Source: an uncultured Verrucomicrobiota bacterium
GTDB lineage: Bacteria > Verrucomicrobiota > Kiritimatiellia > PWTM01
NCBI GenBank assembly: GCA_964402695.1
Contig: CAYODK010000001.1
Coordinates: forward strand, 12,702-76,701
Reading direction: 5' to 3'
Length of the DNA stretch: 64,000 nucleotides
Shown here one piece after another: positions 2,917-34,264 of the stretch. The notes under the pieces are model-generated. The model was not told the origin of the DNA and ran no database searches. It saw nothing but the letters and a program-made list of their open reading frames with translations. The position numbers and the translations under genes are program-made. Positions within the stretch are counted from its first letter, which is position 1. Every line of letters begins with the position of its first letter.

Positions 2917-3981
2917 ATGGCACTGGCTCTCTACCTGATCGGAACGCCGCGATGCGGCAAGACGGCGGTCTTTGACGCGCTGACGAACACGCCGGCCGGC
3001 CCGAACTTCATGACCAAGGGCGGGCACCGCTACGGGACCGTCAAGGTCCCCGACACCCGGCTCGAGGCTCTCCGCGACCTCTTCAAGCCGAAGAAGTTCA
3101 CCCCGGCGGAGGTCACCTTCACCGACGTCGCCCCTCCGGGCGGCGAGGCGATCCACTTCGGCGACATGACCCCCGTGCTCGGCAATGCCGACGCGTTCGT
3201 CCTCGTCGTCCAGGCCTTTGGCGAGTTCGACTACGAGGGCAAGCCCCTCGACCCCGTCGCCCAGATGGAGTCGGTCATCCTCGAGATCACGGTGTCCGAC
3301 TTCGAACGCATCGAGAAGCGCATCGAGAAGGCCGTCACGGACAAGAAGCACGGCGGCAAGATGTCCGAACAGGAGATGAAGCTTCTCGAACGCTGCCGCG
3401 ACCATCTCGCGGCGGACAAGCCTCTCCGGACGATGGAGATGCGCGATGACGAGGAGAAGATCCTCCGCACCTACCAGTTCCTGTCGCAGAAGCCGCTGCT
3501 GGTCGTAGCGAACATCTCCGAGGACCGCATCCGCACCGGTGGCCTCGAGGCCCTCGACGCGGCGGCGAAGGAGCGCGGACTTGAGGTCCTGCAGTTCTGC
3601 GCGACGCTGGAGGCCGAGATCGCGACGCTCGATCCCGCCGCCCAGGTCGAGTTCCTCAAGGACTATGGCCTCGCCGAGCCCGCGCGCATCCGGCTCCTGC
3701 ACGCCGCCTACAAGGCCCTCCGGCTGATCAGCTTCTTCACCGTCGGCGAGGACGAGGTCCGGGCGTGGACGATCCACGAGGGCACCCACGCCCAGGCCGC
3801 CGCCGGCAAGATCCACACCGACATCGAGCGCGGCTTCATCCGCGCCGAGACCGTTCCCTCCGACGAACTGCTCCGCCAGGGCACCCTTGCGAAGTGCCGC
3901 GAACACGGCACGCTCCGCCTCGAGGGCAAGGAGTACATCGTCCGCGACGGCGAGGTCCTCCACTTCCGCTTCAGCGTGTGA
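2917..3981 (+). CDS. ychF: divergent YchF/Obg-like ATPase
   Basis: Track ORF 2878..3981; internal start MALALYLIGTPRCGKTAVFDALT (P-loop GxxxxGKT) and the C-terminal YchF/TGS signature GKIHTDIERGFIRAETV. The canonical NVGKST is replaced by RCGKTA. Confidence 0.7.
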   Translation: MALALYLIGTPRCGKTAVFDALTNTPAGPNFMTKGGHRYGTVKVPDTRLEALRDLFKPKKFTPAEVTFTDVAPPGGEAIHFGDMTPVLGNADAFVLVVQAFGEFDYEGKPLDPVAQMESVILEITVSDFERIEKRIEKAVTDKKHGGKMSEQEMKLLERCRDHLAADKPLRTMEMRDDEEKILRTYQFLSQKPLLVVANISEDRIRTGGLEALDAAAKERGLEVLQFCATLEAEIATLDPAAQVEFLKDYGLAEPARIRLLHAAYKALRLISFFTVGEDEVRAWTIHEGTHAQAAAGKIHTDIERGFIRAETVPSDELLRQGTLAKCREHGTLRLEGKEYIVRDGEVLHFRFSV

Positions 3982-4014
3982 TCCGGCACCCCGTCCCCGG
4001 TCGGCCGCGCGATG

Positions 4015-4049
4015 CAGGGGGACACACTTTATAAAGTCTGTCCCCCTGG
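4015..4049. terminator. bidirectional hairpin between the convergent ychF-like and RACo genes
   Basis: CAGGGGGACACA-ctttataaagt-CTGTCCCCCTGG forms a 10-11 bp GC-rich stem with an AT-rich loop. Confidence 0.55.
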
Positions 4050-4183
4050 TGGGCTCTTCCGGATCAGCGGGTCGATTCGAGCGAACCCCTGCCCGGGTCG
4101 GGCGCCCTGCCTGACAGGATGAGTCCGGCCGTTCCGAAACAGCTCGCCAGGAGCGCGCCCATGATGCGCGGTGTGATCCTCGA

Positions 4184-6100
4184 TCATCCCCGGGGAGGGG
4201 TCGCACGGGTGGACTGCCACATCTCCTGCGTTGCCGCCGCGAAGGCGGAGGGGTCGGCGTTGGGGAGGAGCATCGAGTCGATGTAGGCGGACTCGAACTC
4301 CGGGCGGAGGTTGAGTTCGACCGGTTCGGCGGCGCGGATAATGCGCTCGAACTCCGCGGCGGCGCCGGGGCCGCCGAGCGCGAGGACCGCGCCGGCGAGC
4401 GAGCCGTTGCCGATCACCTCGATCTTCCCGGCGGGCAGGTCGGGCAGCAGCCCCATCCACGCGGCGTGGCGCAGGTGAATGTAGCGTGCGAAGCCTCCGG
4501 CGAGGATCAGCGTGTCGAGATCCGCGACGGTGCGCCCGGCGGCGGCGAGCAGGGTCACGATGCCCGCGTGGATCGCGGCCTTGGCCTTCAGGATTTCGGC
4601 GACGTCCGCCTCGGAGACCGTCAGCGGGTGCCCGGCGGCGGTCGCCTCGGCGGGCACGACGCGGCAGGCGTGGATGTGCCGGCCTCGGTGGTCGACCCGC
4701 GCGTCGAGGCCGGCGGCGCGGAGCCGGTCCATGTCGAAGCGGCCGAGCGCGTCGAGGAGGCCGGACCGGAACGACTGGGCGACGAAGTCGACGATCGCCG
4801 ACCCGCAGAATCCGGCCGCCGGAGCGCCGCCGATCGTCGTCCATTCGGCCTCCGGCCCGTCCGTCCAGCGCACGTGGTCCACCGCGCCGTCGGCCGCGCG
4901 CATGCCGTGGCGCAGCCCCGCGCCCTCGAATGCCGGTCCCGCCGCAGTCGCCGCGCACAGGAGCCGGGCGCCGTCCCAGAGCAGGATTTCGCCGTTGGTG
5001 CCGATGTCGACCAGGGCCACGAGACCCTTGCGGTCGAGAAGCCGCGCCGCGCAGGCGTCCGCGACCAGGTCCCCGCCGACGTGCCCCGTCATCGAGGGCA
5101 GCACGTCGACGATCGCGTTCGGGTTCGCCGCGAGGCCCAGGTCGCGCGCGCGGCACTCCGGGTGGCGGCGGCGCACCGGCTGGAACGGCATCGCGCCGAT
5201 ACCCGCCGGGGTGAGCCCGAGAAACAGGTGCGCCATCACCGTGTTTCCGGCGGCGGTCACGCGAACGATCGCCTCCGGCGCGCAGCCGGCCTTCTCGCAC
5301 AGTTCGGCGGCCAGCCGGTTGATCGTGTCGCGCACGACGAGCGACTGCAGCTGGGCCAGCCCCCCGGGCGCCATGGAGACCGTGATCCGGGCGGCCACGT
5401 CGTCGCCCTTCCGCATCTGCGCGTTGTAGGCGGACGCGCGGCCGATCGCGGCGCCGGTGTCGAGATCGGCCAGCAGCGCGACGACGGTTGTGGTTCCGAT
5501 GTCGACGGCGAGCCCCAGGTGGCGGGTTGTCCCGGCCGGCGCGACCGCCGTAACGTCCACGCCCCCCCGGAACGGCCCCCATGAAACGTCCAGGCGGGGG
5601 GCTGCGGCCAGATGTCCCGGGAGTTCCCGCGCAACGTGGAGATCCGGAACCGCCCCCTCGGGACCCCCGGCCCCGGTGAGCGCGAGCGCGAGTCGTTCCA
5701 CGTCGGAGGAGGCGGTCTCCCAGGTGCCGCCGGAGACGGCGACCGTCGCGCGCCGCTGCACCGGTGTCCAGGCGAAGGCCGGAATCACGAAGTCGTCGGC
5801 GATGCTGGCCCGCTGCTCGACCAGCGACCGGTCCGGGATCTCCACCACGGCATCCGCGGAAGCGGGCCGCGTGCCGCAGGCCTGCGCCCGGCGCGGCGCG
5901 CCCGGCTCCACGCGCACCTCGGAGCCGCGGATGACAAACGCGCCCTCGTGGAGGATGACGGCGCAGCGGCCGCAGGCGCCGCGCGCGCCGCAGGCCGTGT
6001 TGAGCGGGATGCCGGCGGCGAACGCGAGATCCGCCAGCGTGGAACCGGGGGGGCCGTCCTGGATCCGGGTCTCGCCGCGGATCCGGAAGCGCACGCTCAT
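4184..6100 (-). CDS. corrinoid reductive activase (RACo-type: 2Fe-2S ferredoxin plus ASKHA ATPase domain)
   Basis: The N-terminus LNTACGARGACGRCAV is a plant-type ferredoxin Cys cluster. It is followed by a long ASKHA/DUF4445-like region (DIGTTTVV...VDIGTNGEI). It lies 22 nt downstream of a B12-binding protein gene on the same strand. Confidence 0.75.
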   Translation of the reverse strand: MSVRFRIRGETRIQDGPPGSTLADLAFAAGIPLNTACGARGACGRCAVILHEGAFVIRGSEVRVEPGAPRRAQACGTRPASADAVVEIPDRSLVEQRASIADDFVIPAFAWTPVQRRATVAVSGGTWETASSDVERLALALTGAGGPEGAVPDLHVARELPGHLAAAPRLDVSWGPFRGGVDVTAVAPAGTTRHLGLAVDIGTTTVVALLADLDTGAAIGRASAYNAQMRKGDDVAARITVSMAPGGLAQLQSLVVRDTINRLAAELCEKAGCAPEAIVRVTAAGNTVMAHLFLGLTPAGIGAMPFQPVRRRHPECRARDLGLAANPNAIVDVLPSMTGHVGGDLVADACAARLLDRKGLVALVDIGTNGEILLWDGARLLCAATAAGPAFEGAGLRHGMRAADGAVDHVRWTDGPEAEWTTIGGAPAAGFCGSAIVDFVAQSFRSGLLDALGRFDMDRLRAAGLDARVDHRGRHIHACRVVPAEATAAGHPLTVSEADVAEILKAKAAIHAGIVTLLAAAGRTVADLDTLILAGGFARYIHLRHAAWMGLLPDLPAGKIEVIGNGSLAGAVLALGGPGAAAEFERIIRAAEPVELNLRPEFESAYIDSMLLPNADPSAFAAATQEMWQSTRATPPRG

Positions 6101-23726: not shown

Positions 23727-23802
23727 GCCGCGATCACCGATCGCGGCTACAGAAGGCGATGGGGTGAAACGGGCCGCTGCAGCCGCGACGGATCGTCGCG
23801 GC
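23727..23802. promoter_or_regulatory. two copies of palindrome GCCGCGA(C/T)(C/G)-N3-(G/C)(G/A)TCGCGGC upstream of FAD oxidoreductase 1
   Basis: gccgcgatc-acc-gatcgcggc (23727-23747, followed by tacag) and gccgcgacg-gat-cgtcgcggc (23782-23802, preceded by ctgca). Confidence 0.55.
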
Positions 23803-23869
23803 AATGCGTACGGGGGCGCAGGCCGGCCGGGACCACCGGTCCCGGCTACAGCAGATGGGGGACGATGCC

Positions 23870-25530: not shown

Positions 25531-27351
25531 GTGCAATCCGTGGCCCTCCTCTCCGCGGCGCTGCTGACCCTGTGCGCGGCGGGGCCGGGCGGCGTCCGGG
25601 CGGCGGAGATCGAGACCGACGTCTGCGTGTTCGGCGGAACCTCGGGCGGCGTCGCGGCGGGCGTGCAGGCGGCGCGGATGGGGAAGCGCGTCGTTCTCGC
25701 GGAACCCGGAAAGCACCTCGGCGGCATGACGTCGGGCGGTCTGAGCGCGGTCGACATCGGCGATCCGCGGACGGTCGGCGGGATCGCGCGGGAGTACTTC
25801 ACGCGGCTCGTCGCGTCGTACGGCAAGACGCTCGAGTGGGACCGCCCCTTCGTCGCCGCGGGCGGCGGCCCGGCGACCGGCGGGGCCTATGCGATCGAGC
25901 CCCGCGTGGCCGAGCGCGTTTTCGACGGCATGGCCCGCGAGGCCGGCGTGCGGGTCCTCCGCGGCGCCCGGCTCGCCTCGGTGCGCAAGGACGGCGCGCG
26001 GATCCGCGGGATCGCGATGGAGGACGGCACGGTCGTCCGCGCGAAGGTCTTCATCGACGCCACCTACGAGGGCGACCTGATGGCCGGGGCCGGCGTTTCC
26101 TTCACGCTGCTGCGCGAAGGCAACGCGAAGTACGGCGAGACCTACAACGGGATCCACTACAGCGACAAGTACCTTGCGCGCACGAACCACCTGAAGCCCG
26201 GTCCCCACGGCCGCGTGCCCGGCGGGCAGGGCGTGTGGGACCGCGACTTCCCGCTCGATCCGTACGTTGTGCCCGGAAATCCGGCGAGCGGGCTGCTGCC
26301 GCTGCTGAACCCCGGCGAACCCGGGACGCCCGGCGAGCCCGCCCCCGGCGTGCAGGCCTACTGCTACCGTCTGTGCCTGACGACCGATCCGACGAACCGG
26401 ATGCCGGTCGCCCCGCCCGCGGGCTACGATCCGAAGCGCTACGAGCTGGTCGCCCGCTTCATCGCCGCGTGCCTCGCGATCGGCGACGACATGGACCTGC
26501 GCTGGTTCTCCAAGCACGACCCGCTGCCGAACGCGAAGTGGGACTTCAACACCGCGACCTTCGGCGCCAACCTGCCCGGCGCGAGCTGGGAGTGGCCCGA
26601 GGCCTCCTACGCGCGCCGCGCGGAGATCGCGAAGGCGCACGAGGACCACATGCGCGGCCTGCTGCACTTCCTCGCGACCGACCCCCGCGTGCCGGCGAAG
26701 GTGCGCGACGACGTGAAGCGCTTCGGCCTGCCGCGCGACGAGTTTCCCGATACCGGCGGCTGGCCCCACCAGCTCTACGTCCGCGAGGCGCGCCGGATGG
26801 TCTCCGACCTCGTGATGACCGAGCACCACACGTTCGGCCGCGCCGTCGCGCCGGACTCCGTAGGCCTCGGCTCCTACGGCACGGACACGCACGAGATCCG
26901 CCGCATCGTGAAGGACGGCGTCGTGCAGCGCGAGGGCAAGACCGCGACCGGCCGCGACGGCGCGCCGCCGTATCCGGTCGGCTACGGCGCGATCGTGCCG
27001 AAGACCGCGGAGTGCGACAACCTGCTCGTCACGTTCGCGCTCGCCGCCAGCCACACCGCCTTCAGCAGCATCCGCATGGAGCCGGTGCTGATGATCCTCA
27101 GCCAGTCCGCCGCGACCGCGGCGTGCCTGGCGATCGACGACGGCGTCGCGGTGCAGAAGGTCGACCGGCACCGCCTGCGCGAGCGGTTGCTGAAGGACGG
27201 ACAGATTCTCGATTGGGCCGCTGTAGCCGCGACCGCCGGTCGCGGCAATGCGCCCGTGGACGCAAGCCGGCCGGGGTCGACGCCCCCGGCTCCAGAAGAT
27301 GGCGGGCGCGGCATGGGAGACTTTGCGAAGAACGGAAGGACGGGACCATGA
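25531..27351 (+). CDS. secreted FAD-dependent oxidoreductase (PF12831-like), paralogue 2
   Basis: In-frame GTG start (VQSVALLSAALLTLCAAG signal peptide) just after the MITE; [19 protein letters not shown] Rossmann motif; this is the downstream half of track ORF 23764..27351. Confidence 0.65.
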   Translation: MQSVALLSAALLTLCAAGPGGVRAAEIETDVCVFGGTSGGVAAGVQAARMGKRVVLAEPGKHLGGMTSGGLSAVDIGDPRTVGGIAREYFTRLVASYGKTLEWDRPFVAAGGGPATGGAYAIEPRVAERVFDGMAREAGVRVLRGARLASVRKDGARIRGIAMEDGTVVRAKVFIDATYEGDLMAGAGVSFTLLREGNAKYGETYNGIHYSDKYLARTNHLKPGPHGRVPGGQGVWDRDFPLDPYVVPGNPASGLLPLLNPGEPGTPGEPAPGVQAYCYRLCLTTDPTNRMPVAPPAGYDPKRYELVARFIAACLAIGDDMDLRWFSKHDPLPNAKWDFNTATFGANLPGASWEWPEASYARRAEIAKAHEDHMRGLLHFLATDPRVPAKVRDDVKRFGLPRDEFPDTGGWPHQLYVREARRMVSDLVMTEHHTFGRAVAPDSVGLGSYGTDTHEIRRIVKDGVVQREGKTATGRDGAPPYPVGYGAIVPKTAECDNLLVTFALAASHTAFSSIRMEPVLMILSQSAATAACLAIDDGVAVQKVDRHRLRERLLKDGQILDWAAVAATAGRGNAPVDASRPGSTPPAPEDGGRGMGDFAKNGRTGP

Positions 27352-30300
27352 AGCGAATCATCCTGGGGGCGGGGCTGGCGGCGATGGCGTGGGCCGGCGG
27401 CGCGGGCGCGGCGGACAACGGCTGCCGGCGGACGACGGTCTTCGAGAGCGGCAGGGACGGCTACAACACGTACCGGATCCCGTCGATCGTCGCGACGGCG
27501 AAGGGCACGCTGCTCGCGTTCTGCGAGGGGCGGCGCCACGGCAGCGGCGACGCGGGCGACATCGACCTGCTGCTGAAGCGCTCCACCGACGGCGGGGCGA
27601 CGTGGTCGGCCGCGCAGGTCGTCTGGGACGACGGCGCCAACACCTGCGGCAACCCGTGCGCGGTGGTCGATGGCGCGTCGGGCACCGTCCGCCTGCTCCT
27701 GACCTGGAACCGCGGCGACGACCGCGAGTCGCAGATCATCGACGGCACAAGCAAGGACACGCGGCGCGTGTTCGTGACGTCCTCGAAGGACGACGGCCGC
27801 ACGTGGGACAAGCCGCGCGAGATCACGGCGGACGTGAAGAAGACCAACTGGACCTGGTACGCGACCGGTCCCGGCGCGGGGATCCAGATGGAGCAGGGGC
27901 CGCACAAGGGCCGGCTCGTGATCCCGTGCGACCACATCAAGGCGGGCACGAAGGCGTACGATTCGCATGTGCTGCTCTCCAACGACGGCGGCGCGACGTG
28001 GTGGCTCGGCGGATCCACGGTCCACGGCAAGGTCAACGAGTGCGAGGTCGCCGAACTGCCCGGCGGCCGGCTGATGCTCAACATGCGCAACTACGACCGC
28101 GCGCAGAAGGTGCGGCGGGTTGCGTTCAGCGACGACTGGGGGGCGACGTGGGGCAAGGTCGGGGCCGACGAGGCGCTGATCGAACCGGTCTGCCAGGCCA
28201 GCCTGCGGCGGATCGCGTGGGGCGCGGACGGCAAGGAGGGGCTGCTCGCGTTCTCGAACCCTGCGAGCACCTCCGGCCGGGTCAACATGGCGGTGAGGCT
28301 CAGCCGCGACGGCGGCCGCACGTGGCCGGCCCTGCGGACGCTGCACGCGGGTCCGGCGGCCTACTCGTGCCTCGTCGCGCTGCCCGGCGGCGACATTGGC
28401 TGCCTCTACGAGGCGGGGGCGCGGAGCCCGTACGAGTCGATCGTCTTCGCGCGCTTCACGCCGGCGTGGGTCGACGAGGGGCGCATGGACGTCATCCGCC
28501 GGCAGCCCGGCTACGTGTCCTCCGAGTTCATCTACGAGTCCGCGCCGTTCCCTTCGTGCCACGCATCGACCGTCATCGAGACGGGCGACGGCGCCCTCGC
28601 CGCGGCGTGGTTCGGGGGAACGGCGGAGAAGAACCCCGACGTGTGCATCTACGTCGCGCGCCGCGAGGCCGGGCGGTGGACCGCGCCCGTCGAGGTCGCC
28701 AACGGCGTGCAGGCCGACGGCACGCGCCATCCCTGCTGGAACCCGGTTCTGTTCCAGCCGCGGGGTGGGCCGCTGATGCTCTTCTACAAGGTCGGCCCCG
28801 ACCCGCGCACGTGGTGGGGCATGCTGCGGACCTCGACCGACGGCGCCCGCACGTGGAGTGACGCGCGCCGTCTGCCCGACGGCATCCTCGGTCCGATCAA
28901 GAACAAGCCGGTGCAGCTCGCCAGCGGCGACATCCTCGCGCCGACCAGCAGCGAGCACGACGGATGGCGCGTCCACTTCGAGCGCAGCGCCGACGGCGGC
29001 GCGACGTGGGCCGCCACGCCCGCGATCAACGACGGCAGGGAGATCGGCGCGATCCAGCCGAGCATCCTCTTCCCCGGCGGCGACCGGCTCCTCGCGGTCG
29101 GCCGCACGCGGCAGGCGAAGGTTTTCCGGATCGAGTCCGCCGACCTCGGGAAGACCTGGGGGACGATGACGCTCACCGACCTGCCCAACCCGAACTCGGG
29201 GACGGATGCGGTGACGTTGAAGGACGGCCGGCATCTGCTGGTCTACAACCACACCGCGAAGGGGCGCTCGCCGCTCAACGTCGCGGTCTCGTCCGACGGC
29301 GCGACGTGGAAGCACGCGCTCACCCTCGAGGACGAGCCGCGGGCGGAGTTCAGCTACCCCGCCGTCATCCAGGCGCGCGACGGCCTCGTCCACATCACCT
29401 ACACGTGGAAGCGGCAGAAGGTGCGGCACGTCGTGGTCGACCCGGCGAAGCTGCAACTGACCGACATCCCCGGGCCGCCGAACCTGGCGGTCAAGGGCCG
29501 CGGCTGGACCTTCGCGAAGCTGGCCAACGGGGAGAAGGCGTTCTCGAACCGGCCCTACGTCTGGGACGGCGTGCCGGCGGCGTTCCGCGACTGGCGGATC
29601 ACGCAGATCGCGGGCGGCGAGCCGTACGAGACCCGCGTGACGGCGCGGAATGCGACGCGGATCCATGCGGCCATGGTTTCGTCGAAGAGCGCGACGGCGT
29701 TCTCGGGGTGGACGATGGAAGACGGGGTCGAGTTCCGCTACACCGACGGCGGCAAGACGCGCATGCAGGTGTGGTCGCGCGAGCTGAAGGCGGACGAGGA
29801 GGTCGCGCTGCCCAAGGGCGGCTGGGCGGGGACGCTGCTGATGGTGCCGCCGGACGCGAAGGTCACCGTCACCGAGGCGCCGCTGCCGTCGGCGCAGACG
29901 CTGACTCGGCTGCCATACAACAACCCCGGGCTCGTCGTCGATCTCGGCGTCGGCCTGTGGGCCTGGCCGCTGCCGGTCGACTACGACGGCGACGGCGACC
30001 TCGACCTCGTCGTCAACTGCCCCGACAAGCCCTACAACGGGCTCTACTTCTCCCCTAAGCCGGGGGGGGGGCAGGTGCGTTCGTCGGCCGGGCGCGCACC
30101 CAACGATTTGGGGCAGACAGGAGTGTCTGCCCCACGGGGGGGGGTGGGGCAGGCACTCCTGCCTGCCCGGAGTCAGCCCCAGATAGAGGGGTCTGCCCCG
30201 CTGCCGGTCTTCAAGCCCGGACGACGGGTCAGCAAGGGCATGCAGAACGTCCAGATCAGCACCGTCGACGGCAGGCCGCGCGTGCTGTCGCCGGGGACGG

Positions 30301-31958
30301 AGCACCCGGACTTCCTCAAGACGGGTCTCGAGAACGGCGTGAAGCTGCCGCTTCCGGCGAACATCCATCCGAACAAGGTTCGCGCGAACATGTGGCGCAT
30401 CGTCGACTACGACGGCGACGGCGCGCAGGACCTCGTTGTCGGCGTCGGCGACTGGACCGACTACGGCTGGGACAACGCGTACACGGCGGACGGGACGTGG
30501 ACGAACGGTCCGCTGCGCGGCTTCGTTTACGTTGCGCGAAACAAGGGCACGACGGCGAAGCCGGACTACGAGGCGCCCGTGAAGGTGGAGGCTGCGGGCA
30601 AGGCCGTCGAGGTGTTCGGCTGGCCCTCGCCGAACTTCGCGGATTGGGACGGCGACGGCGATCTCGACCTTCTCTGCGGCGAGTTCCTCGACGGGTTCAC
30701 CTACTTCGAGAACCAGGGGACGCGCAAGGCCCCGGCGTACGCCGCCGGCCGGCGAGTACGGACGCCGGATGGGAAGCCGCTGGCAATGGACCTGCAGATG
30801 ATCACGCCGACGGCGATCGACTGGGACGGGGACGGCGACCAGGACCTGATCGTCGGCGACGAGGACGGCCGCGTGGCGTTCGTCGAGAACGTGAGCGACG
30901 TGGGGCAGACACTCCTGTCTGCCCCAAACCGGACCCCTTCCGTGGCGCAGGACGGGGCAGACAAGAGTGTCTGCCCCACGACGCCGGGTTTCCTCCCCCC
31001 CCGCTACTTCCGGCAGGAGGCGGAGAGCGTGAAGTTCGGCGCGCTCGCGACGCCGTGCGGGTTCGACTGGGACGGCGACGGCGACACCGACATCGTCAGC
31101 GGCAACACGGCCGGCTACATCGCGTTCATCGAAAACCTGAGCGGCCCGAAGGTGGCGACGCCGAAATGGGCGGAGCCGGAGTATCTCGAGGCCGATGGCA
31201 GGATCCTCCGCATCATGGCCGGCCCCAACGGCAGCATCCAGGGGCCGTGCGAGGCAAAGTGGGGCTACACGACGCAGACAGTCGCGGATTGGGACGGCGA
31301 CGGCCTGCCGGACATTGTCGCCAACTCGATCCTCGGCAAGGTGCACTGGTATCGCAACACCGGCACGCGGACGTCGCCGAAGCTCGCGGCGGCGCAGCCG
31401 GTCGAGGTCGAGTGGAACGGTCCGCAGCCCGCGCTGGCCTACGGCTGGCTGCGCCCTCAGGGCAAGGCGCTGCTGACGCAGTGGCGCACGACGCCGGTCG
31501 CGGTGGACTGGAACCGCGACGGCCTGACCGACCTTGTGATGCTCGACCAGGAGGGCTACCTCGCCTTCTTCCAGCGCGCGCGGCGCGACGGCCGGCTGGT
31601 GCTGCTGCATCCGCGGCGCGCGTTCTGCGACGACACCGGCGCGGCGCTGCGGATGAACGCGGGGATCGCGGGGCGGAGCGGGCGGCGGAAGCTGTGCGTC
31701 GTCGACTGGGACGGCGACGGGAAGCTCGACATCCTCGCCAACGCCGCCAACGCGCGGTTTCACCGGCAGGTCGGAGAGAAGGACGGCACGTGGCTTTTCA
31801 AGGACATGGGCCTGCTCGTCGAGCACAACATCGAGGGCCACGACGTGAGCCCGACGGTCGTCGATTTCGACGGCAACGGCATCCCCGACTTCCTCGGCGG
31901 CGCCGAAGACGGCCACTTCTACTTCCTCCCCAATCCCCGCGCCCACCTGATGCGCTGA
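27348..31958 (+). CDS. giant exo-alpha-sialidase (GH33) plus second BNR/sialidase-like domain plus beta-sandwich plus FG-GAP/VCBS repeat domain
   Basis: ATG 27348 (ATGA overlap) gives MKRIILGAGLAAMAWAGGAGA signal. YRIPSI (RIP motif) and five Asp-boxes (STDGGATWS, SKDDGRTWD, SNDGGATWW, SDDWGATWG, SRDGGRTWP). A second BNR set follows (STDGARTWS, SADGGATWA, ADLGKTWG, SSDGATWK). Then nine DxDGDGxxD FG-GAP/VCBS repeats. This is the in-frame part of track ORF 25491..31958. Confidence 0.7.
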   Translation: MKRIILGAGLAAMAWAGGAGAADNGCRRTTVFESGRDGYNTYRIPSIVATAKGTLLAFCEGRRHGSGDAGDIDLLLKRSTDGGATWSAAQVVWDDGANTCGNPCAVVDGASGTVRLLLTWNRGDDRESQIIDGTSKDTRRVFVTSSKDDGRTWDKPREITADVKKTNWTWYATGPGAGIQMEQGPHKGRLVIPCDHIKAGTKAYDSHVLLSNDGGATWWLGGSTVHGKVNECEVAELPGGRLMLNMRNYDRAQKVRRVAFSDDWGATWGKVGADEALIEPVCQASLRRIAWGADGKEGLLAFSNPASTSGRVNMAVRLSRDGGRTWPALRTLHAGPAAYSCLVALPGGDIGCLYEAGARSPYESIVFARFTPAWVDEGRMDVIRRQPGYVSSEFIYESAPFPSCHASTVIETGDGALAAAWFGGTAEKNPDVCIYVARREAGRWTAPVEVANGVQADGTRHPCWNPVLFQPRGGPLMLFYKVGPDPRTWWGMLRTSTDGARTWSDARRLPDGILGPIKNKPVQLASGDILAPTSSEHDGWRVHFERSADGGATWAATPAINDGREIGAIQPSILFPGGDRLLAVGRTRQAKVFRIESADLGKTWGTMTLTDLPNPNSGTDAVTLKDGRHLLVYNHTAKGRSPLNVAVSSDGATWKHALTLEDEPRAEFSYPAVIQARDGLVHITYTWKRQKVRHVVVDPAKLQLTDIPGPPNLAVKGRGWTFAKLANGEKAFSNRPYVWDGVPAAFRDWRITQIAGGEPYETRVTARNATRIHAAMVSSKSATAFSGWTMEDGVEFRYTDGGKTRMQVWSRELKADEEVALPKGGWAGTLLMVPPDAKVTVTEAPLPSAQTLTRLPYNNPGLVVDLGVGLWAWPLPVDYDGDGDLDLVVNCPDKPYNGLYFSPKPGGGQVRSSAGRAPNDLGQTGVSAPRGGVGQALLPARSQPQIEGSAPLPVFKPGRRVSKGMQNVQISTVDGRPRVLSPGTEHPDFLKTGLENGVKLPLPANIHPNKVRANMWRIVDYDGDGAQDLVVGVGDWTDYGWDNAYTADGTWTNGPLRGFVYVARNKGTTAKPDYEAPVKVEAAGKAVEVFGWPSPNFADWDGDGDLDLLCGEFLDGFTYFENQGTRKAPAYAAGRRVRTPDGKPLAMDLQMITPTAIDWDGDGDQDLIVGDEDGRVAFVENVSDVGQTLLSAPNRTPSVAQDGADKSVCPTTPGFLPPRYFRQEAESVKFGALATPCGFDWDGDGDTDIVSGNTAGYIAFIENLSGPKVATPKWAEPEYLEADGRILRIMAGPNGSIQGPCEAKWGYTTQTVADWDGDGLPDIVANSILGKVHWYRNTGTRTSPKLAAAQPVEVEWNGPQPALAYGWLRPQGKALLTQWRTTPVAVDWNRDGLTDLVMLDQEGYLAFFQRARRDGRLVLLHPRRAFCDDTGAALRMNAGIAGRSGRRKLCVVDWDGDGKLDILANAANARFHRQVGEKDGTWLFKDMGLLVEHNIEGHDVSPTVVDFDGNGIPDFLGGAEDGHFYFLPNPRAHLMR
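30062..30071. repeat. homopolymeric G10 tract inside the coding sequence
   Basis: ccggggggggggcagg; a second G9 tract lies at ~30136-30144 and a C8 tract at ~30995-31002. Confidence 0.8.
30110..30168. repeat. pair of 24-nt palindromic hairpins GGGGCAGACA-N4-TGTCTGCCCC and GGGGCAGGCA-N4-TGCCTGCCC inside the sialidase gene
   Basis: ggggcagacaggagtgtctgcccc (30110-30133) and ggggcaggcactcctgcctgccc (30146-30168), both translated in-frame (GQT...SAP). Confidence 0.8.
30902..30977. repeat. second pair of the same palindromic hairpins, 0.8 kb downstream in the same gene
   Basis: ggggcagacactcctgtctgcccc (30902-30925) and ggggcagacaagagtgtctgcccc (30954-30977). Confidence 0.8.
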
Positions 31959-31970
31959 TAAGAAGAGGAC

Positions 31971-32922
31971 GACAACCGAATGGGGACAACCGAATGATGA
32001 GGGAAGTAGGACAAGGTTGGTAGCGCTGGAAAGAGGCTGTTGACGATGTCGATTCAGTGTTCCATTCCGGTGCGAGACTTGAGCAAGGGCGAGTTCGACG
32101 AACGCGACGCCGTCGTGATGCGCTGCGCCTATGCATCCCAGAACTGCCTGGGAAGGCTCTGCGACGAGCAGGTCTATGAGAATGATCTGGCATTGCGCCT
32201 GAAAGCCGAGGGATTCTGCGAGATTCACACGCAGGTGCCGGTTGTCGTCACTCATGAGGGGTTTGAGAAGACCTATCGATTGGACCTCCTGGCCGACGAT
32301 GCGCTGTACGAGTTGAAGACGGTTGCGGCGCTGACCGCCGAGCATGACGCCCAATCGTTGCACTACGCCATGCTGCTGGGAGTCCGGCATTCGAAACTGC
32401 TGAACTTCAGGACGCCAAGGGTGCAGGGGCGGTTGAGATTCAACGCGATCGATCCAAGCCAAAGGATGAGGGTTACGTGGAGTACTTCGAAGTGGTGTCC
32501 GCTGTCCGATTCATGCGTTCACCTTAAAGAGTGGATTCAGGCCATGGTCTCCGACTGGGGCGCCTTTCTGGACTCCCACCTGTACGAAGAGGCGTTGATC
32601 CACTTCTGCGGCGGCGAGTTGAACTGCGTTCGCCGCGTGCCGGTGCTCCGAGAAGGTCGGCAACTGGGCACGCAGAGGGTCCAATGTCATGACGATGGCC
32701 TCTGCTTCCTCGTGACCGCCATGACGGCCGATGTTGAGCGATTTGCGGGGCATCTCCAACGCCTGCTTGCATTGACCCGGCAGCGCGGAATGCAATGGAT
32801 GAATCTCGATCGCGAACGTGTCCATCTGAACACCATTCGTCCCGAGGAAGTACATAGGACTTCATCATGAACAGGCATCATCCCTCCCTTCGGCACTATT
32901 CGGTTGTCCCCATTCGGTTGTC
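31971..32922. mobile_element. ~0.95-kb low-GC cassette with perfect 25-bp terminal inverted repeats carrying one PD-(D/E)XK-family gene
   Basis: Left TIR gacaaccgaatggggacaaccgaat at 31971-31995. Right TIR attcggttgtccccattcggttgtc at ~32898-32922 is its exact reverse complement. The interior is visibly AT-richer than its flanks. Confidence 0.7.
32040..32870 (+). CDS. GxxExxY / PDDEXK_3 (PD-(D/E)XK nuclease-like) family protein with extra C-terminal domain
   Basis: EQVYENDLALRLKAEGF...VPVVVTHEGFEKTYRLDLLADDALYELKTVAALTAEHDAQSLHYAMLLGVRHSKLLNF matches the GxxExxY family pattern; TTG start per the track, first ATG at 32046. Confidence 0.65.
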   Translation: MTMSIQCSIPVRDLSKGEFDERDAVVMRCAYASQNCLGRLCDEQVYENDLALRLKAEGFCEIHTQVPVVVTHEGFEKTYRLDLLADDALYELKTVAALTAEHDAQSLHYAMLLGVRHSKLLNFRTPRVQGRLRFNAIDPSQRMRVTWSTSKWCPLSDSCVHLKEWIQAMVSDWGAFLDSHLYEEALIHFCGGELNCVRRVPVLREGRQLGTQRVQCHDDGLCFLVTAMTADVERFAGHLQRLLALTRQRGMQWMNLDRERVHLNTIRPEEVHRTSS

Positions 32923-34120
32923 ATTCCGTTCGGCTGCCGCCGCTCTTTTCGCGGTGGCGTCTTCATCGGTCGCGGCGGAGGCTCCCCGGGCATCCGGGAC
33001 GAACATCACCAACCACGCCGAGTGGAGGAACGGGCGGCCGGTCGGTCTGCCGGGGGCGGTGACGGCGAGGGTCGAGACAGCCTTCGTCTACCGGCCCGAC
33101 GCCGACTCCGCGTGGGCCTACTCGCATCACCAGAGCCTCGCATGGTTCACGGGCCGCTGGTTCGCGATCTGGTCCAACGGCCGCGTGAACGAGGACGACC
33201 GCGGGCAGCGCGTGCTGCTCTCGACCTCGAAGGACTTCCTGACCTGGTCCGAGCCCCGCCCGCTCGCCGTGCCCGACCGCGACGGCTCCGGCGGGGAGCG
33301 CGTGCTGACCGCGGCCGGCTTCCACGAGCACGACGGCACGCTCGTCGCCTATTTCGGCAACTACGGCTTCCGCAAGGAGACCACGCACCTGCAGGCCGTG
33401 ACGACGACGGACGGCGACCGCTGGAGCGAGCCGCTCGAGATCGGCGTCCCCGTGAACCCGAACCACGGGCCGCAGCGGACCGCGTCCGGCCGGCTCATCA
33501 TCAGCGGCAACATCTCGTTCCCATGGACCGACGACCCCGCCGGCCTCACCGGCTGGCGCATGACCGGGATCCATCCCGCGAGCCTCAACTTCACCATCAA
33601 GGACGATCCATCCTCCTTCCACGACCTCGCGACGATGCAGGGCTGGCCGGCCGGGCTGTGCGAGGGCTCGTTCTACCAGACCGACGACCGCGTCCTCCAC
33701 ATGCTCCTGCGCAGCACCGGCCGCCCGCACGACGGCCGCCTGTGGATCAGCGAGAGCCGCGACGACGGCGCGACGTGGTCCGCGCCCGTCCCGACCGCGT
33801 TCAGCGACACCAATGCCAAGTTCCACTTCGGCCGCCTGCCCGACGGCCGCTTCTTCTACGTCGGCAACCCGGTCGGCGGCGGCCGGATCCCGCTTGTTCT
33901 GTCGCTCTCGCGCGACGGCGCATCGTTCGACCGGCACTTCATCCTCGGCGCGACGCCGTACGAGAAGCGGAAGGCCGGAACGCACAAGGGCGGCCACTAC
34001 GGCTACCCGCACACGCTGGTCCGCGACGGCTTCCTCCACGTGATCGTCTCGCGCCAGAAGGAGGCGGTCGAGGTGCTGCGCGTGGCGCTGTCGGAACTGA
34101 ACGAAGAGAGGGCGCGATGA
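32867..34120 (+). CDS. BNR-repeat sialidase-like glycoside hydrolase
   Basis: Asp-box-like STSKDFLTWS, TTDGDRWS, SRDDGATWS, SRDGASFD. The first 18 codons are encoded by the right TIR of the upstream cassette; an in-frame TTG at ~32918 gives a cleaner signal peptide (LSFRSAAAALFAVASSSVAA). Confidence 0.65.
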   Translation: MNRHHPSLRHYSVVPIRLSFRSAAAALFAVASSSVAAEAPRASGTNITNHAEWRNGRPVGLPGAVTARVETAFVYRPDADSAWAYSHHQSLAWFTGRWFAIWSNGRVNEDDRGQRVLLSTSKDFLTWSEPRPLAVPDRDGSGGERVLTAAGFHEHDGTLVAYFGNYGFRKETTHLQAVTTTDGDRWSEPLEIGVPVNPNHGPQRTASGRLIISGNISFPWTDDPAGLTGWRMTGIHPASLNFTIKDDPSSFHDLATMQGWPAGLCEGSFYQTDDRVLHMLLRSTGRPHDGRLWISESRDDGATWSAPVPTAFSDTNAKFHFGRLPDGRFFYVGNPVGGGRIPLVLSLSRDGASFDRHFILGATPYEKRKAGTHKGGHYGYPHTLVRDGFLHVIVSRQKEAVEVLRVALSELNEERAR

Positions 34121-34143: not shown

Positions 34144-34264
34144 GCCGCGACCAGCGGTCGCGGCTGCAGAAGAGGAACGCGAGGCATGTCCGACTGTAGC
34201 CGCGACGGGTCGTCGCGGCGACCTTGCCTCTACGAACGTACTGCCGCGACCAGCGGTCGCGGCC
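34144..34264. promoter_or_regulatory. three tandem copies of palindrome GCCGCGACC-N3-GGTCGCGGC upstream of FAD oxidoreductase 3
   Basis: Copies at 34144-34164, 34199-34219 and 34244-34264; the same palindrome is also at 23727, 23782 and 27227. Confidence 0.6.

Follow-up and report, generated by a model that had tools for sequence, protein, structure and literature searches.

In-frame GTGG-headed REP palindromes in two propeller loops of a sialidase-type gene from an uncultured Verrucomicrobiota bacterium

How does a gene come to contain hairpin-forming palindromes within its coding sequence and remain open? This question is raised by a sialidase-type gene of 1,536 codons (27348-31958, +; open reading frame (ORF) call with start assignment) in a 64,000-nt stretch of DNA from an uncultured Verrucomicrobiota bacterium. 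We refer to this whole stretch as the window; coordinates count from its first letter, and + denotes its forward strand. A first-pass annotation made from the letters alone had described four hairpins in two pairs inside the gene, together with long G and C runs, as palindromic insertions of a family that it did not recognise, and had suggested that they might make a surface glycosidase phase- or length-variable. Here we identify the hairpins as members of a GTGG-headed family of repetitive extragenic palindromes (REPs) and of the inverted REP doublets known as REPINs. We consider it highly probable (about 0.85) that they are copies moved by a REP-associated tyrosine transposase (RAYT) which landed in frame in two surface loops of the protein and have been tolerated there.

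Palindromic units in an intact gene

The encoded protein is of a secreted type, with two BNR/sialidase regions followed by a C-terminal FG-GAP/VCBS beta-propeller (Pfam BNR_2, 3e-128; BNR_3; FG-GAP_3; FG-GAP). The pattern GGGCAGRCA-N4-TGYCTGCCC has four matches in the 64 kb, at 30111-30132, 30147-30168, 30903-30924 and 30955-30976, all within this gene and where the hairpins had been reported. Shuffled sequences give an expectation of 0.02 matches, and none of 100 shuffles reached four. Relaxing the pattern to 3 mismatches revealed no further credible copy in the 64-kb window.

The units are 24-26 nt long, with stems of about 8-11 bp and 4-nt loops. They follow the consensus GTGG-GGCAGRCA-YTCY-TGYCTGCC, and those in the window have either a CTCC loop or the reverse complement, ending in CCAC. 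Each unit is asymmetric, carrying its head on one side only: units 2 and 3 have GTGG, and units 1 and 4 have the complement CCAC. Because the head is one-sided, the pairs are inverted doublets, that is, REPINs. The earlier grouping into two sites stands, but the description as plain pairs does not, and site 1 has an additional decayed arm. Folded as single-stranded DNA, individual units reach -11.8 to -13.4 kcal/mol (z -3.9 to -7.1).

At site 1, a REP-derived expanded loop (30048-30203, +) replaces a native loop of about 42 nt, FFEN-xSGDTAKNKM-PVFKPG, as judged from loop lengths and from DNA comparison with the homologous loci L010, L116 and L117. It contains unit 1, GGGGCAGACA-GGAG-TGTCTGCCCCAC (30110-30135, +), which lies in reverse orientation with its head on the right and is the most stable single unit (-13.4 kcal/mol, z -7.1). 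This is followed by a second element, REPIN B (30144-30201, +), in which unit 2, GTGGGGCAGGCA-CTCC-TGCCTGCC (30144-30168), is joined through the spacer CGGAGT..AGAG to a shortened right arm (30186-30201). This arm has lost about 12 nt and is the decayed partner of unit 2. REPIN B aligns (alignment A2) with the full REPINs that flank the RAYT gene of L010, with which it has the conserved spacer in common, and its deleted form is also found in L116 and L127. A further degenerate unit is perhaps present at about 30066-30089.

Site 2 is simpler. Its REPIN (30900-30979, +) has outward-facing heads and consists of unit 3, GTGGGGCAGACA-CTCC-TGTCTGCCCC (30900-30925), a 28-nt spacer, and unit 4, GGGGCAGACA-AGAG-TGTCTGCCCCAC (30954-30979). 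The corresponding inverted repeat (I2) has 31-nt arms that are 94% complementary, and as single-stranded DNA the whole doublet forms a single long hairpin (-38.9 kcal/mol, z -9.0).

The segments without homology to the native loops measure about 156 nt at site 1 and about 99 nt at site 2. The inserts of about 150 and 108 nt proposed earlier are close to these values, but the net gain relative to the homologue-family consensus is smaller, at +114 nt (38 aa) and +66 nt (22 aa). As had been reported, the reading frame is uninterrupted across both segments, and in that frame the units encode the peptides GQTGVSAP, GQALLPA, GQTLLSAP and ADKSVCP. Intact REP units contain 0 stop codons in all six frames.

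We used the ratio of non-synonymous to synonymous substitution rates (dN/dS) to assess the state of the gene. Compared with the L010 orthologue, the gene as a whole has a dN/dS of 0.16, with 0.088 for the stretch between the inserts and 0.095 past insert 2; against L116 it is 0.136 between the inserts and 0.14 past insert 2. Purifying selection therefore acts on the coding sequence between and downstream of the inserts (dN/dS about 0.09-0.14). An AlphaFold model of the propeller built with 63 sequences is a confident propeller (predicted template modelling score, pTM, 0.84). The sole long low-confidence coils in it are model residues 77-108 and 360-373, which lie within inserts 1 and 2 and are each flanked by beta-strands; the site-1 insert is a coil with predicted local confidence (pLDDT) of 28-36. 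The model places both inserts as predicted disordered loops on the propeller surface.

Two further features of the host gene were noted. The FFEN motif, near-universal among 120 aligned homologues, reads FSPK in the window (30048-30059), and the 8-nt stretch immediately 5' of the G10 run differs from that of L010 and L116; the site-1 propeller blade has thus lost the conserved structural FEN motif. In L116, the closest metagenomic relative, the gene is called as two products of 409 and 1145 aa (L116 3-1232 and 1229-4666), and its N-terminal 890 aa are far more diverged from the window (27348-30000) than the propeller is (dN/dS 0.42, dS 0.61). The N-terminal sialidase part may have had a history separate from that of the propeller.

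Filled, empty and decayed loops among relatives

We searched with the C-terminal 702 aa of the protein, which detected about 7,200 homologues, and aligned the top 120. Relatives were grouped by masked pairwise identities and average-linkage clustering. Both loops are longer in the window than in most homologues: from NGxYF to PVFKPG, site 1 spans 62 aa in the window and 24 aa in 96 of the 122 aligned sequences, and from RVAFVEN to FLPPRYF, site 2 spans 47 aa against 25 aa in 101 of 122. Loop lengths and the alleles of relatives bear out the proposal that palindromic elements were inserted in frame in loops between FG-GAP repeats, and the orthologue alignment recommended by the first-pass annotation revealed relatives that lack the segments or have different versions of them.

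The closest set is a trio, 92-93% identical, formed by the window protein, its orthologue in L010 and P0001 (locus L116). In L116 and in L127, a near-identical variant of the L116 contig, site 2 is empty and site 1 holds only REPIN B, decayed but with its stem kept by compensatory changes. In L010, site 2 carries one collapsed REP unit, and site 1 (2790-2860) carries a different REP doublet, ..CCGGCCCTAC / GTAGGGCCGG.., which resembles the Opitutus terrae family GTAG-18 (VGPALAAG). One loop has thus accepted two unrelated REP families. These presence/absence differences among orthologues of 92-93% identity are indirect evidence of mobilisation.

More distant relatives carry the family at the same positions. 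P0006 (locus L117) has GTGG-family doublets at both sites, and P0030 (locus L130) has a single GTGG-family unit at site 1. P0006 and P0030 each have nearest relatives, 86% identical, in which the loops are normal; the same loops were thus filled by separate events in three lineages or more (window/L010/L116, P0006 and P0030). The same observation rules out one ancient insertion common to all carriers.

A separate observation concerns the empty sites of L128 and L129. There the native loop codons GGC GAC ACG GCG (G-D-T-A, GGCGACACGGCG) match the REP arm GGCAGACAC but for one indel, and their position is exactly that of the arm in the filled alleles of L117 and L130. The likeness could be a coincidence or a hint of target preference.

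A GTGG-headed REP family in several phyla

To place the units, we scanned a collection with one genome per species for GGGGCAGRCA-N4-TGYCTGCCCC. At least 115 loci matched, and many of the matches are ordinary terminator-like hairpins. The counts that follow are among the matches listed. The GT/AC extension together with a YTCY or RGAR loop was found in 59 of 121, and a slightly looser core recovered 102 family copies, very often arranged as GTGG..-spacer-..CCAC doublets. Most of about 100 copies from other genomes keep the GTGG head. Stem position 6 covaries across 104 copies (A-T in 64, G-C in 34, other pairs in 6). The hosts are mainly Planctomycetota (Gemmataceae, Isosphaeraceae, Planctomycetaceae and Tepidisphaeraceae) and Verrucomicrobiota, joined by Acidobacteriota and a few other metagenome-assembled genomes (MAGs), and some copies sit on megabase contigs. 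Copy number reaches at least 9 loci in the sister MAG CAYRFK01 and at least 5 in several planctomycete MAGs. By a heuristic test combining ORFs with GC content at third codon positions (GC3), about 93 of the 102 copies are not inside genes.

The hairpins therefore belong to a GTGG-headed REP/REPIN family. Copies exist in other genomes too, so the outcome that the first-pass annotation had named as refuting its proposal, conserved segments with no further copy of the hairpin, did not arise. The family it could not name falls among the GTAG/GTGG-headed REPs and REPINs, with a RAYT gene beside the orthologue in a sister MAG. An Rfam search of 29800-31300 with E up to 10 returned only sub-threshold microRNA-like hairpins, the best scoring 42 bits where the gathering score is 74. 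A full-text search of a literature collection found no exact 20-mers of the units, and 10-12-mers matched unrelated primers only.

Intragenic copies occur elsewhere too. In the Planctomycetaceae MAG CAWDLR01 (L088 1459-2313), a biotin protein ligase gene (BPL_LplA_LipB and BPL_C) carries an in-frame REPIN of the GTGG family within its WPNDVYV...DRKLSGILVE region. In the MAG that encodes P0006, a GTGG-family unit (L117 4676) lies inside the ORF of a neighbouring BNR_2 sialidase-like gene (3072-5573).

The window also holds a second REP family, (T)GTAG-CCGCGACC-nnn-GGTCGCGGC, which has a GTAG head and lies in ordinary extragenic positions (23727-23750, 23826-23849, 27226-27246, 34144-34169, 34199-34219 and 34243-34263). 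One copy is about 100 nt 5' of the sialidase start, and three are clustered at 34144-34263. The genome thus holds several REP families.

A RAYT gene beside the sister orthologue

We built a RAYT profile from the alignment in the supplement of PMC3733652 and searched it over all loci, after a regular expression for the RAYT C-terminal motif NPxxAxL..WxWSS had found no match in six-frame translations. The sole match was at L010 4280-5344 (E 9.5e-16). L010 belongs to the Verrucomicrobiota MAG CAYRFK01 and carries the orthologue of the window gene; the RAYT-type Y1 transposase gene (L010 4742-5344) lies immediately 3' of the stop codon of that orthologue. Its product scores 25.7 bits against Pfam Y1_Tnp (cut-off 23) and has both the HUH motif (NHVH; YALMPNHVHAIL) and the tyrosine motif Y..NP (YRAYIDANPRKAGL). 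The gene is flanked by members of the family found in the window, with a GTGG-family REPIN at 4631-4706 on one side and three units at 5374-5479 on the other.

Homologues of this transposase number 943 at E <=1e-10, and many are named 'REP element-mobilizing transposase RayT'. Most lie on very short contigs (1-3 kb). Each of five that we fetched is flanked by inverted REPs of the same design, with stems that co-vary: GTGA-CGCAGACA-ATCC-TGTCTGCG; GTAG-CGCGGACA-CTCC-TGTCCGCG; and GTAA-TCGGGGCA-GGAA-TGCCCCGA. A RAYT gene flanked by its own co-varying REPs is the defining REP-RAYT arrangement.

Several of the homologues (L118, L120 and L122) share a neighbourhood, with archease, CobW and RtcB on one side and an HtrA-like protease on the other, which suggests a vertically inherited, single-copy locus. 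The L010 gene is in a different place from this archease-CobW-RtcB synteny.

Immediately 3' of the window sialidase gene is a segment of lower GC content (0.53-0.63; 31962-32931) in which a GxxExxY/PDDEXK_3 gene (32046-32870) lies between 49-nt inverted repeats with core GACAACCGAATGGGGACAACCGAAT. The same PDDEXK_3 cassette, with 42-nt inverted repeats, is found at L116 4604-5585, and L010 has the RAYT gene and its REPs in this slot. On its layout, the PDDEXK_3 cassette looks like a small mobile unit.

Origin of the homopolymer tracts

The G10 (30062-30071, +; site 1, codon 905), G9 (30136-30144, +; codon 930) and C8 (30995-31002, +) runs are exactly where they had been reported. They are the sole runs of 8 or more in the window, and G10 and G9 the sole runs of 9 or more. 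The first-pass annotation read all three as slipped-strand contingency tracts associated with the inserted elements, and here our analysis departs from it.

The C8 run lies outside the element, in the codons CTC CCC CCC CGC (L-P-P-R). The same C8 is present in L116 and L127, in which site 2 is empty, and the run is C7 in L010 via a substitution and C6 in L117. Residue P384 of the FLPPRYF motif is invariant in alignment A1. C8 is therefore ancestral coding of the conserved FLPPRYF motif and no part of the element.

G10 and G9 are not present in the closest relatives, L010 and L116. G9 separates units 1 and 2 as a spacer, and the G at its 3' end also opens the GTGG head of unit 2; in the tail-to-head pair of L010 the corresponding spacer is GGGATGGTGC. 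The sequence at G10, GGGGGGGGGGCAGG, can be set against the intact head GGGGGTGGGGCAGG at 30140-30153 (repeat family D15, 93% identity), and on this likeness G10 probably arose by mutation from the head of a REP unit now decayed. We infer that both runs derive from G-rich REP heads and spacers and do not reflect a phase-variation function. Across 458 kb of loci that carry REPs there are 26 G/C runs of at least 7, and just one of them, the orthologous C7, is near a REP; we dismissed poly-G as a feature of the REP family.

Competing explanations

Could the gene nevertheless be a contingency locus, in which slippage at G10, G9 or C8 switches the C-terminal propeller or its loop length and makes a surface glycosidase phase-variable? 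The arrangement has suggestive features. The two long G runs are only 65 nt apart within the ORF, in a sequence that avoids long runs (three of at least 8, where an independent-base model predicts about 20). A -1 slip at either would truncate the protein at a stop at codon 945, and paired -1/+1 slips would leave the frame intact and change just 22 aa, all three frames between the tracts being open. We nonetheless regard this explanation as quite unlikely: C8 is ancestral Pro-Pro coding of equal length in L116 and L127, the orthologues of 92-93% identity are without the G runs, the tracts at codons 905 and 930 of 1,536 are not near the start or promoter, and poly-G is unlinked to the REP family elsewhere. 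We found no length-variant G-tract allele by protein look-up or metagenome scan, neither of which had same-species material; the look-up returned no record of the exact window protein, and the scan, with the site-1 left anchor, returned only the L116 contig and L127. For G10 and G9 the contingency reading is unsupported, though still conceivable. Very unlikely, in our judgement, is that the hairpins were co-opted as nucleic-acid structures, for example as an mRNA stabiliser or RNase target, a pause site between blades, or a DNA site of gyrase or integration host factor (IHF) type. The hairpins are very stable, the stem in L116 is kept by compensatory changes despite its coding location, and many REPs have been argued to act as RNA elements (PMC3733652). 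However, half of the site-1 units are decayed or deleted, L116 and L127 have nothing at site 2 and L010 has a single unit left there, some 100 of the 120 homologues that we aligned (from about 7,200 detected) are without any such structure, and no Rfam family reaches threshold; stem covariation is expected in any case for copies of an active master family. An artefact, with palindromes or poly-G misassembled and an open frame produced by compensating homopolymer errors, would be still more surprising and is highly improbable. Several platforms make errors in homopolymer length, two compensating errors at G10 and G9 would pass unseen because all frames between them are open, and RAYT/REP regions often break assemblies, as the 1-3-kb contigs of most RAYT homologues illustrate. 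Yet independent assemblies from other samples (L010, L116, L127, L117 and L130) have related REP states in the same loops, and the flanks on either side align colinearly with those of orthologues, with purifying selection acting on them in the same frame.

Transposition of REP copies into the two loops, the explanation that we favour, would work as follows. A RAYT-type tyrosine transposase (HUH/Y1), recognising the hairpin when the DNA is single-stranded, would spread the non-autonomous REP units, and copies would arrive time and again in the two stretches that encode these loops of the FG-GAP propeller. Selection would retain only stop-free, frame-preserving versions in surface loops, where they would be translated as disordered loop extensions and then decay through point mutations and small in-frame deletions. 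Both RAYT-mediated transposition as the route of insertion and the selective neutrality of the inserted peptides are inferred in this scheme.

Several observations weigh against it. The profile search found no RAYT in the 64-kb window, and both the transposase and the copy number attributed to this genome are taken from the sister MAG. The best NCBIfam model for the L010 transposase, REP_Tyr_transpos, scores 56.8 bits, under its 80-bit equivalog cut-off. All four window copies are in one gene, with no extragenic copy of the GTGG family within the 64 kb, and the test that places most family copies outside genes is, as stated, heuristic. The filled alleles are not clean insertions, a portion of the native loop having been replaced, so the original insertion event is not reconstructible; comparison of filled with empty alleles for precise junctions or target duplications defined none. 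The family consensus does not account for G10 and G9, and random insertion with selection explains incompletely why the same two loops were struck in independent lineages. Loop reuse and the G10/G9 pair thus stand out as oddities under this explanation.

It is conceivable, if unlikely, that the reuse of the loops in at least three lineages goes beyond survivorship and reflects target preference or homology-assisted capture, such that REPINs generate surface-loop diversity in a secreted glycosidase. The likeness between the G-D-T-A codons and the REP arm and the RAYT gene next door in one genome may point this way. If so, slippage at the G10/G9 pair would in addition recode 22 aa of loop.

Relation to known palindromic elements

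The window units resemble elements already described in this phylum. Proteins of the ASPIC/UnbV type are FG-GAP/VCBS-type proteins, for which the source discussed here gives the annotation only. REPs have been sorted into GTAG- and CGTC-tagged superfamilies, with GTGG head variants noted (Di Nocera, De Gregorio and Rocco 2013, BMC Genomics 14:522, PMC3733652). The same study catalogued about 70 in-frame intragenic REPs in Opitutus terrae, including some in ASPIC/UnbV proteins and glycoside hydrolases; they occur as singles and inverted dimers, sometimes two per ORF, add about 7-30 aa each, and were interpreted as tolerated insertions in loops or linkers. Like the O. terrae elements, the window units are short GT[AG]G-headed palindromes, present as singles or inverted dimers in frame in a Verrucomicrobia host. 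The GGCAGRCA stem with its YTCY loop and the peptides GQTxxSAP, GADxxVCP and WGRxxCLP are not in the intragenic-REP table of PMC3733652, whose consensus figure may include the family.

REPIN-RAYT systems (Nunvar et al. 2010; Bertels and Rainey 2011, PMC3116915) match in their inverted REP doublets with a spacer, in a Y1/HUH transposase gene flanked by its own REPs with stems that co-vary with RAYT lineage, and in the conserved archease-CobW-RtcB synteny of several RAYT homologues, as expected if they are vertically inherited. Classic REPINs, however, have been described as extragenic and lineage-specific, whereas the window copies are within a gene and the identical 24-nt unit occurs in MAGs of several phyla.

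Of the two likenesses suggested in the first-pass annotation, that to the Rickettsia palindromic elements (RPEs) is apt as a phenomenon. RPEs (Ogata et al. 2000) are likewise palindromic selfish DNA inserted in frame and translated as an extra surface peptide without destroying the protein. RPE-1, however, is about 100-150 bp long and found in Rickettsia only, whereas the window units are 26 nt, GTGG-headed and RAYT-associated. RPE-4 and RPE-6 have been classed as CGTC-tagged REPs without a dedicated transposase (PMC3733652). Judged by description, the window units are not RPEs, being 26 nt long with a GTGG and not a CGTC head. The other likeness, to the Correia elements of Neisseria, does not hold. 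Correia elements are miniature inverted-repeat transposable elements, nearly always found between genes and 100-155 bp long, that have terminal inverted repeats of 26 bp, duplicate a TA target and contain an IHF site. Like the units described here they are small, non-autonomous, multi-copy and hairpin-forming in transcripts, but comparison of filled with empty alleles revealed at neither window site 26-bp terminal inverted repeats on a 100-150-bp body or a TA duplication, and on reading of the sequence the IHF site is absent as well.

The locus is thus a clear further example of a kind already catalogued in Verrucomicrobia and not a new kind of element. For annotation, such segments are to be read neither as contingency loci nor as novel domains. 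The occurrence of one REP unit in MAGs of several phyla bears on the view of REPIN-RAYT systems as strictly lineage-bound. The filled, empty, collapsed and decayed alleles among close relatives, with the presumed transposase adjoining the gene in one of them, form a natural series that is useful for studying how selfish palindromes turn into extra protein loops.

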